A stretch of 64,000 nt of DNA from positions 14,570,001-14,634,000 of the forward strand of contig CM022670.1 of the NCBI GenBank assembly GCA_012295275.1. Reading direction: 5' to 3'. This document shows positions 27,969 through 38,139 of this stretch, piece by piece (position 1 is the stretch's first letter; each line of letters opens with the position of its first letter). The position numbers and the translations under genes are program-made. The stretch comes from Chrysomallon squamiferum. Lineage: Eukaryota > Animalia > Mollusca. The notes below the pieces were generated by a model that saw only the letters and a list, made by a program, of their open reading frames with translations, was not told the DNA's origin and made no database searches.

Positions 27969-28804
27969 GTAATAACAACAGATTAAGAAATTAAGAAATT
28001 AAGAAATTAATAAATCCAAAATATTTTGCGGGAACTGAGGAAAGATATTCTATTGTTCTTATTTGTATTTTTCCTGTAGCTGAGGCTGATATATATACTA
28101 TATAGCATATAAGAACAATTGCTAAAATTTCGACATCTTTTACTTATATTTATTTTTATAATTTCACTTTATTCCAGAATCGTATGTTACTTCATAAGTA
28201 GAGATGTAACTATATCTCGTACTTTATTCGTGTAATATGTACAAACAAGAAAACACAGAAATAGTAATAGAATTTTTCATAATAGCAGAAGTTATTGTAT
28301 TTTATTAATATTACAACGAGGATTGCTATACTCTAATATCGACAACAACAACTAGTACTTCAACAAGGATTACCATACTATTATATAAACAACAGCTACT
28401 ACTACAACACAATCAGCAACACTTACTATTACAACAAGGATTACCATGCTATAATATAAACTATAACTACAAGAAGGATTACCATACTAATATAAACAAT
28501 TAATACTAATAAATATTACCATATCTAACATAACAACAGCAACTACTACAACAACAAGCATTACCATGATATAATATAAACAACAGTGCTACTACAACGA
28601 GGTGTTCCATTCTGTAACACAAACAACAGCTACTACTAGTACAACAGTAAACAGTACCATACTGCTACTCCCATTGCTGTTGCTGCTGCAATTACAACAA
28701 CACCTACCATTACTATTGTTATTAATAAAGGACGAATTACAAAATATTAATCTATACAATATCCGAACATATGTTTATGCTGAGCGGCATTTACACACAC
28801 ACAT

Positions 28805-28856
<52 letters not shown>

Positions 28857-31369
28857 ATGCCTATAGTTGCATACATACGGATATACATGCTCACTCATAC
28901 TATACAAACATACACACACATATATTCATACACATATACTCAGAAACATGCACAGACATACACACATACATACATTCATACATGCATGTATACATATAAT
29001 GATTATATAAAGGCATGCATACATAACTTAAATAATTATACACTCCATTAGTGTAAGTTTCGAGTGGAATATTTTAAACGTTAAACTCTAATATCTGTAT
29101 CTATGTATTACTTTGTAAACAAGGAACAAAAGGTAATATGCCAAAGGTAAAACAGCTGACACATTTAACAGACAAAAAATAAAAAATAAAAATGAAAGCC
29201 ATATATCATTTTTCCATACGTCATCTTTTTATCGTGCTATGGGAACCTGCTGTTCTCTATTCAGATTTAGCCTGTATTATTTTGAGATTACTCGTATTCG
29301 AATGGTCGTTATCATAACCCTTTAACGAGAGTGTAGTAAGTAAGATCCTCTTGATGGGGTTTCTATGTTGCGCAAACGTGTTTTTCTACATGACAGTTTA
29401 ATTCTCCACAAATAGGCGTGTTCTAGATAAGTCTTTATTGTCAAGCATTTTGTTGAATAGCAGAACCAGGACAGATCTTAAGTAATAAAAAATAATGTGA
29501 TTTAATTTACTCTTCCAAATTTAACTTTTAATAAATTATTGTGTGTCGATTTGAAAGCTTCATCCGTGTGAAACGTGGTTGTGCTTATTAAAGGTTCAAG
29601 AGTGCATATCTTGCCCCACGTTAACCAGGAGAAAGTGTTGTCTGTCCAACAGTTTGTTAGTGTGTTAGTGTGTTAGTAGATTACTGATAATGAATAAATG
29701 AGTTTTTAACAACAGTATGAAACAATAGTACATGAGTTTTAAGGTCTCACACTGAATATATTATTACTAAAAACTGCTAAATCTTTTATTTAACTGCAGT
29801 GTTACAATCTGATAAGTTATAGCTGGTTCACACAGTGTTCAGTTATCGAATAATGCACTGTCCGGTACTACTTGACCTGTGGTATAAAACTGTGGTGTGT
29901 ATTTTCCTACTGATTTATGGTATGTGAATTTAAAATTTATCCTGCTGTTAACTGAAAAGATATAGCATCATTATCATAATTATCATCGCTGTTGTTTTTG
30001 TTAGTGTTGTTATTATTATTCAAAAGGCATACACAGAAAGTTGTCAGCCGGGAAGGTGTCACGGTTAAGTGAACACGAATTCATGACTTTAACTCGTTGT
30101 GTTACTTTTCCTGTCTAGCTACGCGGGAAGGCGAACTCTGAAAAGAAATATTTAATGTACAAGTAGCTGTATGCAGTGAAATTTATTATATTAACTGAGG
30201 TTATATTAGACAGTTATTAATTAAATATATATCATTTCTGATGATGATGACAATGATGATTATATCAGTATTAATAATAATAATAATGCAAAGAAGAAGA
30301 AGAAAAAGGACAACAACATCAAGAACAACAACGACAATAATAATAATAATAACAATAACAATAACAATAATAATAATAATAAAAATACTAATTATAATAA
30401 TAATAACAGATTAATGAATTAAGAAATGAATAAATACAAAATATGTTGCAGGGAACAGTGTGGAATGATATTGTGTTGATTATATATTTATATTTTTCCT
30501 GTAGCTGAGGCTGATGTTACATACTGTATCGCTTATAGAAATCATTGATACAATTTCTATATCTTTTTTTACATTTATTTTTATAATTTCACGTTATTCC
30601 AGATTCGTATGTTCAGTAGCTAGTTCTTTATTCGGGTAATATATATAAACAAGAAAACACTGAAATAGTAATAATATTTGCGATACAAATAGCATTATTG
30701 TATTTTATGAAAATTCCAACGAGGATTACCATACTATAATATAAACAACAACTACTACTACAATGAGAATTACCATAATATAACACACACTGCAACAACT
30801 ACTACTACAAAAGGATTACCATCCTATAATATAAACAACATTACCATACTGTAACATAAACAATAACTATTACAACGACGATAACCATACTAATATAAAG
30901 AACTACTAGTAATAAATACAACCATATAAAACATAAACAACAACAACTACTTCTAAAACAATCATTACCGTGCTATAATATAAACAACAATGATGCTACA
31001 ACGAGTATTATCATAAAACAAACAATAGCTATAACTACTACAAAGAGGTGTTCCATTCTGTAACACAATCAACAGCCACTAGTACAGCAATGCAGATTAC
31101 CATACTACTAGTCCCATTTCATTTACACACGCACACACGGACACGCACACACACATACAAACACACACACATAATAAAGAGATAAACACAGCTAACTATG
31201 GCACACACAGTATGACTCATATAGCTGGGAAACATACACACACAACATGCATAATGCAGTTTCAAGCGATATTCGAACATGTATTCTGTTACTCTTATAC
31301 AAACACAAGGATTAGTGCAGGGCATTCTATATTTCTTCCTCGGTGACAACATTAAATAATTTCAACACT

Positions 31370-35698: not shown

Positions 35699-35729
<31 letters not shown>

Positions 35730-38139
35730 ATCTTTAATAGAAATATAAAAGGTTATAAAAAAGGTTACAACATTAGTTATAAGAAATTTTTTCTAATTGC
35801 AGATAACTCATTTGACTACGAAACGAAATATGATAGCTAAATTTATTTTCAAACAAAAATTATATATCTATATATATATATATATTAATAGTCTTTAGTA
35901 GAAATATGGTACATTATCATCTAACTGTATTTGCATATATATGGTAAAGCATTGTGTTTTAACTTCTGACTCTGATCATATATTATTTCTTTTCCAGTCT
36001 GTACACGTTACATCAGTTACGGACCAAACTGCATTAAACAGTGTCAGAATCGTCACTGTGCTTTAAAAAACCCACCCTGCGACATCTACCGTGGGGACTG
36101 TGGTACCAGTGGATGTCAGGCAGGCTGGAAAGGAACTGACTGTACTCAAGGTTTACTTCTTTTACATAGTTTTCTAATTGTAAATACATTCATGCATCTG
36201 TTGAGTTAGATTTTCAGTTAAATTTATTTTAATTAATTGTTTTAGAAGACTACTCTTTTAAAGTTTTTCTTTTTAACAGAAGTACAGTGTATATGTATTA
36301 ATCTTTGCTGTATTATTTTTATTTCTTTGATTTATCTGTCAGTCTATTTCTCTGAATATTTATGTTTAAATCATTAGGTTTAGCAATCATTTGATGTTTG
36401 TCCATGCCTTAATAATCATTTAAACATTGTTTTATATTGGACTTTAGTGCACGCTTATCTTTTCTTATATCATTCTTAGCAGTGTGAAATCGTCATTGTT
36501 GTATGTTCGTACTAATCACTTTAGCATGTTGTTTTTACGTAGCACTTTATTGCATGTTCATATTTTCTTATTCCATTTTTACAGATTATAATCATTTTTA
36601 TATTGGTACTGATTTTAATTCTTAATCTCTTTCCAGCATGTAAATCCCAATCTACTTATGGACCTAACTGTGATACAAATTGTAAAGGTCGTCATTGTTC
36701 TTCATCAAATGCACCCTATGATGTGCAGTATGGAAATTGCGGTAATGGTAGATGTCAGGCAGGATGGAAGGGAACCGACTGTACACAAGGTAACTGAATT
36801 TTCACGAATTCTGATAAAACTATATAAATTTATTTATTTTACCTAAATTCTTTCATGAAACATCTTTTCTGGATTTTTGTTTTGAATAGAAATAATAATA
36901 AGAATCCTTATAAAATCTTTGCTATCTTAAAACATTTTCTTGAACATTTTATCTCTCGACTAAGATTATGACTGTCTATATTTAAATCGTTGTTTTATCA
37001 TTTTGATGTTTATAATGCATTTAACTAGTCATTTTAACATGCTTTTAATTTGGGCTTCTACTTTCTTCGAACTGAAAAACATCTCAAATATCTGAAATGG
37101 AAAAATATAAATATGAATGTAGAGTTGCATTACTTGTGATCAAAATGTGATTCTATTTTGAATTCATCAAATATTACAACAGTAAAAGAGTAAGAATTAA
37201 TTATAATTGTATGTTACAGAATGTGAGAAAAATGTGACCTATGGACGTGGTTGTTTGAAGCAGTGTTCTAAACGTCATTGTCTGAACACATCAACGTGTG
37301 ACACAAAGACTGGGGAATGTATTGGAGGTTGTCAAGCTGGATGGCTAGAACCTGACTGTTCTCAAGGTGAAAATTAAAAGCTGATTACTCTCAGGTTTTC
37401 ATTAAAATGAGAAACAGCTGATATTTTAGATACATTTATTAATATAGTATATATATATATATATTACATTATTTCATCAACTTTCTGGATGTTTAAACCA
37501 TTGTTCTCACATTCGCTGTTTGGTTTACGCATGCGTGTGATTCAAACACTGGAACATATATCGGATACTGTCAGCCTGGATGGAGAAACACAGACCGTCA
37601 TAATAGCAATAAACAGAAACTGAAAAGTGTTAACAAATTAGTTTCAACAATTTCATCCATTTACATCTTTCCCTTCATTCAGTGTTTTATTATATTAAAC
37701 TTATTAATTGTACGTATTTTTGTTTTAAATACTAATATTAAGAAGACTATATAGTTTAACTGTGTATGGGTATGTACATGAACAACAACTGTTTTATAAA
37801 TATTTCAGCGTGTGATAATACATATGGAATCGACTGTGGTTACAAATGTAGTGACAGAAACTGCAAGAACGATAACTCATTGTGCTATGTTAAAACAGGG
37901 GAATGTATCGGAGGATGTAAGCCTGGATGGAAGGGTTTAAGCTGTACTAAAAGTAACTCATTTATTTTACAAGCACTGGCTTTCTATTTAAATAATAATT
38001 CTAAATTTAGTTGAACTATTAACGAATATTAATCATTAATAAATAGATAACGAAAGGTTTGGTGACTTATTATTAAGTTGTACGTTCATAACGAACGGTT
38101 TTGTGACTTATTATTAAGTTGTACATACATACAGAGAGA

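Follow-up and report, generated by a model that had tools for sequence, protein, structure and literature searches.

What keeps the front half of a receptor tyrosine phosphatase gene nearly the same as that of the tyrosine-tail receptor genes beside it, and how did such an arrangement arise? The question is raised by a window of 64,000 nucleotides (the whole stretch of DNA that was analysed) from the gastropod Chrysomallon squamiferum (assembly GCA_012295275.1, contig CM022670.1, positions 14,570,001 to 14,634,000 of the forward strand), which is about 30% GC and intron-rich. Five genes, A (partial in the window) to E, were modelled there from splice sites and reading frame. The products of A, B and C consist of a signal peptide, an F-type lectin, EGF repeats, a transmembrane (TM) segment and a 97-residue tyrosine tail. 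D and E join the same kind of ectodomain to tandem protein tyrosine phosphatase (PTP) domains, and these two genes are oriented tail to tail. Gene D (31370-47737) has an intact F-type lectin/EGF/TM/tandem-PTP frame, unbroken over 1091 amino acids. The reading favoured here, at a probability of roughly 0.55, is that the front half of D is a further copy of the front half of the neighbouring tail genes, joined to the phosphatase by a crossover and kept alike by gene conversion, and that the two classes work as an on/off pair.

The shared front half of gene D and its end

The sharing itself is confirmed. From the signal exon to EGF3 the exons of D are 88-97% identical in nucleotides to those of B and C, and at the protein level D and B agree in 275 of 315 residues (87%) from the signal peptide to EGF3; the signal exon translations given in an earlier note on this DNA were reproduced. 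The introns of D match those of B and C at 81-93% over aligned columns, whereas introns of D and E, aligned with equal leniency, reach only 64-77%, the level of the AT-rich background. The end of this likeness is stepped. Similarity drops at about 36845 and ends at 37054, close to where the earlier note had seen it fade. Positions 36790-36845 are 95% like the EGF3 intron of C, 36856-36950 are 74-76% like A/B, 36951-37054 are 78-79% like B/C, and 37055-37219 give background scores only. The junction zone (74-79%) is thus more diverged than the upstream introns, as is expected of nested tract ends.

The left limit proposed earlier, 28800, is no boundary, because 11084 of the 11683 bases of 25372-37054 match the preceding B-to-C unit. 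Likeness is continuous from the tail of C to 37054, so the front half of D is the end of a tandem unit of about 12-13 kb with one breakpoint. When the 3' half of D was compared with positions 1-28800, only simple-repeat matches were found among the matches listed. Downstream, the exon-for-exon likeness of D to E that had been claimed holds from the TM exon on (18 exons) but not for EGF4 and EGF5, which have no one-to-one partner in E; EGF5 of D is a distant relative of an EGF exon of A (74% in nucleotides). The signal and lectin exons of E are far more diverged, at 69-77% to D, and its introns are at background. The array would look identical whether D received the front half of a tail gene or A-C received that of D, so it gives neither direction nor donor. 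The description of D as the carrier of a tail-gene 5' half therefore stands for the sharing and not for D as recipient.

Exchange between copies and the Gigantopelta counterpart

Discordant sites among the copies are found in lectin exon 1. When four copies are compared, nine informative sites group B with D, the next five group C with D, and one then groups B with C. This switch has p=0.001 if sites are independent, but the nine B+D sites fall within 22 bases. Within gene B, the 3' part of lectin exon 1 occurs a second time together with its intron, at 7730-8205 (exon part 7730-7870). This duplicate resembles C in the predicted binding loop and B beyond it, and is without an acceptor of its own as far as checked.

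A separate exchange concerns the phosphatase-D2 exon of D and E. The two copies are 91% identical, compared with 62-80% in the other PTP exons, and the proportion of synonymous differences (pS) is 0.086 against 0.689 (p=3e-12). This exon is likely a short conversion tract between inverted genes. A runs test on the three copies B, C and D gave a raw p<1e-4. The proposal of chimerism or conversion is borne out insofar as paralogue exchange is seen in lectin exon 1 and in the D/E exon. Locally, conversion has good support by these comparisons; over the front half as a whole the support is only moderate.

The closest proteins that carry a name come from the vent snail Gigantopelta aegis, at 65-67% over lectin exon 2 (three of four matches named); they are automated models and were compared at the protein level only. 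In that species 348 of 381 ectodomain residues (91%) are identical between the PTP protein P0004 and the tail protein P0006, and the likeness stops directly behind the last EGF. The two lectins agree at 92% with each other and at 57-60% with those of B, C and D, which are 88% alike to each other and 56-58% to E. A lectin tree of 13 rows was built, leaving out fucolectin-4 P0013, P0009 and P0012. The lectins group by species in it: D falls with B and C (97/91), so the grouping with E, which the earlier note had set as evidence against its own proposal, is absent. The P0004/P0006 fork is weakly supported (57/63). A forced tail-class clade of B, C and P0006 was rejected by the approximately unbiased (AU) test (p=4e-5), as was a clade of D with the Gigantopelta PTP P0003 (p=0.02, half of the domain only). 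In a tree of 35 EGF modules all five modules of P0004 pair with those of P0006, and the first three of D pair with those of B and C; EGF4 and EGF5 of D fall with Gigantopelta modules.

The tyrosine tails are homologous between the two species (39%), and both classes therefore predate the species split. Each species thus appears to have ectodomains matched across classes, each with its own endpoint. Relatives of the B tail were absent from a word search (0 of 43 candidates), and a profile search found 11, of which five of the ten looked up were from Gigantopelta. A second Gigantopelta lectin-EGF family (P0008, P0009, P0012) has a different tyrosine tail, ending in YxxL-x9-YxxI in P0008 and P0009. 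Orthology of D with P0003 and of E with P0004 was considered and is unsupported (AU p 0.19 and 0.31). Haliotis P0007 and P0011 were rejected as a third matched pair, because their lectins, though grouped by species, reach no more than 53-60% likeness.

Predicted function and competing explanations

The lectin aligns to solved F-type lectins (FBP32 and fucolectin-related matches, E value about 3e-6), and the h2DG cation motif is present as AVDG in B-E. The fucose triad of the family is given as HX24RXDX4(R/K) in the portion of the source available (PMC5712786). In D and C both the His and R-x-D-x4-R are retained, with 27 residues between them, in alignment with those of FBP32; E has R-E-W at this position. 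The cytoplasmic end of D has the parts of a classical receptor PTP, namely a TM segment, a D1 domain with KNRY, WPD and HCSAGxGR, and a second domain (PF00102). These three motifs are those of an active first PTP domain, and in D they are intact.

The tails end in YxxL-x10-YxxI/L in 15 of 15 sequences, always with a spacing of 10, although 11 of them came from a profile search with this same tail. The strict spacing of an ITAM (immunoreceptor tyrosine-based activation motif) is x6-8, which none of the 15 tails has. A relaxed pattern, YxxI/L-x6-12-YxxI/L, is used in the accessible part of a preprint (bioRxiv 2022.03.25.485889), and all 15 fit it. The label "ITAM-type" in the earlier note is therefore retained for the relaxed-spacing motif, as a motif reading, and the last motif of the tail also matches an inhibitory one (ITIM).

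The favoured reading would work as follows. The join was likely made long ago by unequal crossover within the intron that follows EGF3, and repeated gene conversion since then likely kept the front halves alike. Related glycan ligands would be read by both classes, one switching the response on and the other off. Upon ligand binding the tail receptors would be phosphorylated on YxxL-x10-YxxI and would recruit a kinase of the Syk/Shark type, and D, brought to the same contact by its similar ectodomain, would remove the tail phosphates directly and so set a threshold. As a threshold device, this would let a ligand-matched phosphatase enter a contact that otherwise keeps bulky phosphatases out. 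For Draper, the trigger is the exclusion of transmembrane phosphatases, according to the text available (PMC6219719), which provides a reason for a ligand-matched phosphatase to inhibit. A bolder version, held only tentatively and at less than even odds, is that of a gastropod paired system, different from those of vertebrates, in which ectodomains are repeatedly traded between a lectin receptor of ITAM-like type and a receptor tyrosine phosphatase. The glycan that engages the lectin receptor would also bring in the enzyme that serves as the brake, the join at 37053 would segregate as the SIGLEC14/5 fusion does, and snail loci for schistosome resistance may follow a similar logic.

Several observations weigh against the favoured reading. 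The three-copy runs test weakens after unbiased thinning (p 0.001-0.27), and its signal is gone after same-type neighbours are collapsed, a step biased against clustering. B has Leu in place of the triad His, and the proportion of nonsynonymous differences (pN) is 0.085-0.118 in lectin exon 1 against 0.034-0.049 in the rest, an excess of amino-acid change with p 0.08, 0.03 and 0.0003. The earlier claim that the ligand-binding ends are kept matched is weakened by this comparison: the scaffold is shared and the predicted binding loops appear reshuffled. Positive selection on the exon was considered and set aside, as pN/pS is below 1 and synonymous change is not exceeded. Additionally, C and E are frameshifted, only two species are compared, the PTP tree does not resolve, and P0004 is an automated model with no evident signal peptide that could itself be mis-joined.

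The reality of the join in D is weighed on short contigs from four of nine sequencing runs, compared over 35400-37430 only; filtered records leave holes in them, and depth is no copy number. X1 and X2 have exact D-type contig matches upstream of the junction, so the front half of D is a real, distinct copy. Among the contigs listed for the four runs, none bridges 36850-37050 under a 31-base bridging rule, and depth is near zero at 36896-37031 in all four, which is no proof either way. Two X6 contigs depart from the window sequence at 37053, with 60 unlike letters before it, where the likeness to B and C ends; their loose end matches nothing in the window, and none of the sites listed for EGF2 and its intron has the window letter in X6. 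These gaps and departures also count against the favoured reading. X1 and X2 appear to follow the window from about 37028 across 37053, as judged from arithmetic on bin means and over a length too short for a bridge. A polymorphic join at 37053 fits all of this. It is unlikely that the assembly mis-joined a tail-gene front half to a phosphatase gene, or that 36845-37054 is a blended consensus of paralogous reads. Such an error would account for the patchwork of A/B-type and C-type intron, for the depth hole, the missing bridge and the X6 departures, and for a consensus that is rough elsewhere (a one-base frameshift in each of C and E, a 97-base repeat without mismatch, and base 36066, which all four runs read otherwise). 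However, it is opposed by the exact matches in X1 and X2 and their apparent course across 37053; holes can arise from the filtering, and the Gigantopelta pair provides a precedent.

If the join is real, its meaning can still be read in other ways. The shared front half could be a neutral by-product of tandem duplication whose unit boundary lies in an EGF intron, with D perhaps original, A-C hybrids, and no selected opposition. We give this a minor but appreciable share of the probability. It is consistent with the uninterrupted likeness up to 37054, which is how a tandem unit with one breakpoint would end, with the fact that all EGF exons are phase 1-1, so that any such join is in frame, with signs of turnover (frameshifts, lost and remnant EGF exons, Cys losses), and with conversion that also strikes a non-binding PTP exon. 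However, a by-product would leave the class-crossing match in Gigantopelta, with its different endpoint, and the conservation of the tail motif across species to be explained. The arrangement could also be real with both classes inhibiting: the tail, as an ITIM, would recruit an SH2 phosphatase, and D would give the same output with its phosphatase hard-wired. In 15 of 15 tails the final motif indeed matches an ITIM of the SPYxKI type, which is a further point against the favoured reading, and the same ITAM/ITIM ambiguity is reported for Hydractinia Alr1C/D in the accessible part of the preprint cited above (bioRxiv 2022.03.25.485889). The fixed spacing of 10 residues between the two YxxL/I motifs suits a tandem-SH2 binder such as a Syk-type kinase and speaks against joint inhibition, which we regard as improbable. 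That argument is qualified by SHP2, which has tandem SH2 domains too.

Coordinates of the genes and features of the window are collected below.

Table 1. Features of gene D and of the neighbouring genes (positions in the window).
Feature	Position	Strand	Remarks
D signal-peptide exon	31370..31451	+	96% nucleotide identity to B, 90% to C, 69% to E
D F-type lectin exon 1, predicted binding loops (His, R-x-D)	32843..33049	+	Pfam PF00754/PF22633; PDB FBP32 and fucolectin-related matches; mosaic among copies by the four-copy site switch
D lectin exon 2	33544..33750	+	95% nucleotide identity to B and C, 77% to E
D EGF1	34514-34657	+	common to B and C
D EGF2	35998-36150	+	common to B and C
D EGF3, one Cys to Tyr	36637-36789	+	common to B and C
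D junction zone, intron 3' of EGF3	36790..37054	+	95% C-like to 36845, then 74-79% A/B- and C-like
D-specific EGF4	37220-37366	+	groups with Gigantopelta modules
D-specific EGF5	37809-37952	+	groups with Gigantopelta modules
D TM exon (38495-38597), then two juxtamembrane exons	38495..40138	+	homologous to E
D tandem PTP: D1 with KNRY, WPD, HCSAG motifs, then D2-type domain	40465..47737	+	PF00102; frame open to stop
D phosphatase-D2 exon, likely conversion tract	45940..46091	+	near-identical to E 51029-51180 (-)
C TM and tail exons, intergenic DNA, D upstream blocks	25372..31369	+	91-92% to B-to-C counterpart in main blocks
Gene A, 3' part only: EGF3 end, two more EGF exons, TM, tyrosine tail	1..3277	+	gene model
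Gene B: lectin, three EGF, TM, tyrosine tail; 454-residue open frame	5913..14358	+	gene model
Gene C: lectin, four EGF, TM, tyrosine tail; frameshift in T run, lectin exon 1	19281..26297	+	gene model
Gene E: diverged lectin, three EGF, TM, tandem PTP; frameshift at catalytic-motif exon end	50048..63509	-	gene model

The frameshifts in C (in the T run at 20860-20880) and E (at about 53710) are each due to a single extra T and may be real losses or consensus errors. The first two EGF exons of E (58629-59204, minus strand) are a recent duplicate pair (90% in nucleotides), decayed EGF exon remnants lie in D at 37520-37620 and 38266-38350 and in A at 1108-1190, and the last EGF exon present in A and C is missing from B. 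In X1 and X6 the summed contig depth at EGF4 of D (37236-37371) greatly exceeds that on either side, a hint that many EGF exons like it exist elsewhere. Intergenic DNA at 14848-19043 and 26789-31100 consists of two alternating blocks before each gene, one with CAA-rich repeats, and no first exon without coding sequence was located. Between the 3' ends of D and E (48873-49064), 97 bases are repeated exactly and in direct orientation, which may mark an assembly overlap.

Relation to known receptor systems

The nearest named relatives, Gigantopelta aegis XP_041357574 (PTP) and XP_041359117-9 (MEGF10-like), have the same PTP/tail ectodomain match (91%), but there it reaches the TM boundary, whereas in Chrysomallon squamiferum it stops after EGF3. 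Within the text available, the Gigantopelta genome paper reports expansions of fucolectin and MEGF families, with PTPRK among the families in a figure, and mentions no pairing (PMC7895826). Draper, MEGF10 and CED-1 likewise have EGF-type repeats and signalling through tyrosine motifs that is opposed by transmembrane phosphatases, as far as the consulted text describes them (PMC6219719). The cluster described here differs from them in its F-type lectin head and in an opposing phosphatase that shares the ectodomain rather than being excluded by bulk.

The closest architectures come from Biomphalaria. The LG5R "scavenger class F-like" subgroups 1B and 1C of Biomphalaria glabrata are likewise clustered single-pass genes; in the text available, 1B has a fucolectin and EGF-type ectodomain with a short tail, and 1C has two PTP domains (PMC13712769). 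This domain order is matched by the present cluster. The portion of that paper's main text consulted contains no wording on ITAMs, activating or inhibitory receptors or chimeras, and gene conversion appears once, generically (PMC13712769). The SudRes1 MEGF/GBD receptor PTPs of Biomphalaria sudanica have the same domain order as D and E, with copy-number change and EGF loss between haplotypes; the consulted part of the main text is without ITAM or conversion and compares the phosphatases among themselves (PMC12297450). Biomphalaria proteins were absent from the matches of our protein searches, so the likeness to LG5R and SudRes1 is at the level of architecture. In two Biomphalaria species, genes for such receptors lie beneath peaks of schistosome resistance, and no mechanism has been assigned to them. 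If ligand-matched opposing pairs exist, resistance could depend on the ratio of phosphatase to tail receptors and on which ectodomain each carries, and a receptor PTP would gain a glycan ligand in common with its likely substrate. Our literature search found no report of matched PTP/tail ectodomains in molluscs, with most subscription journals and all supplements outside the search. Both architectures are thus known from Biomphalaria resistance regions and conversion-maintained pairs from Siglecs, and the matched PTP/tail ectodomains are new as far as searched.

In the Siglec family proper the ectodomain is built of Ig domains, and the activating member has a charged TM residue for DAP12. Membership in that family was rejected here, because the ectodomain is lectin-EGF and the TM segment of B has no charged residue. 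The paired Siglecs 5/14 and 11/16 resemble the present cluster in carrying near-identical ectodomains on different signalling ends, and the accessible accounts describe concerted evolution by conversion, with fusion and null alleles (PMC6288428; PMC4042635). Here the ectodomains are highly similar on different cytoplasmic ends (87% between D and B to EGF3, 91% in Gigantopelta), group by species in the two species compared, and include sites in lectin exon 1 that are discordant among the copies of the present cluster. Siglecs, as described in the same accounts, use an Ig fold, inhibit via recruited SHP-1 and activate via DAP12 (PMC6288428; PMC4042635), whereas this cluster combines a lectin-EGF fold with a predicted phosphatase that is part of the receptor, and its tyrosine motifs lie in the tail of the receptor itself. 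The cluster therefore resembles paired receptors without being a Siglec system, and its two classes may form a functional pair, which, if true, would extend conversion-maintained receptor pairs to molluscs.

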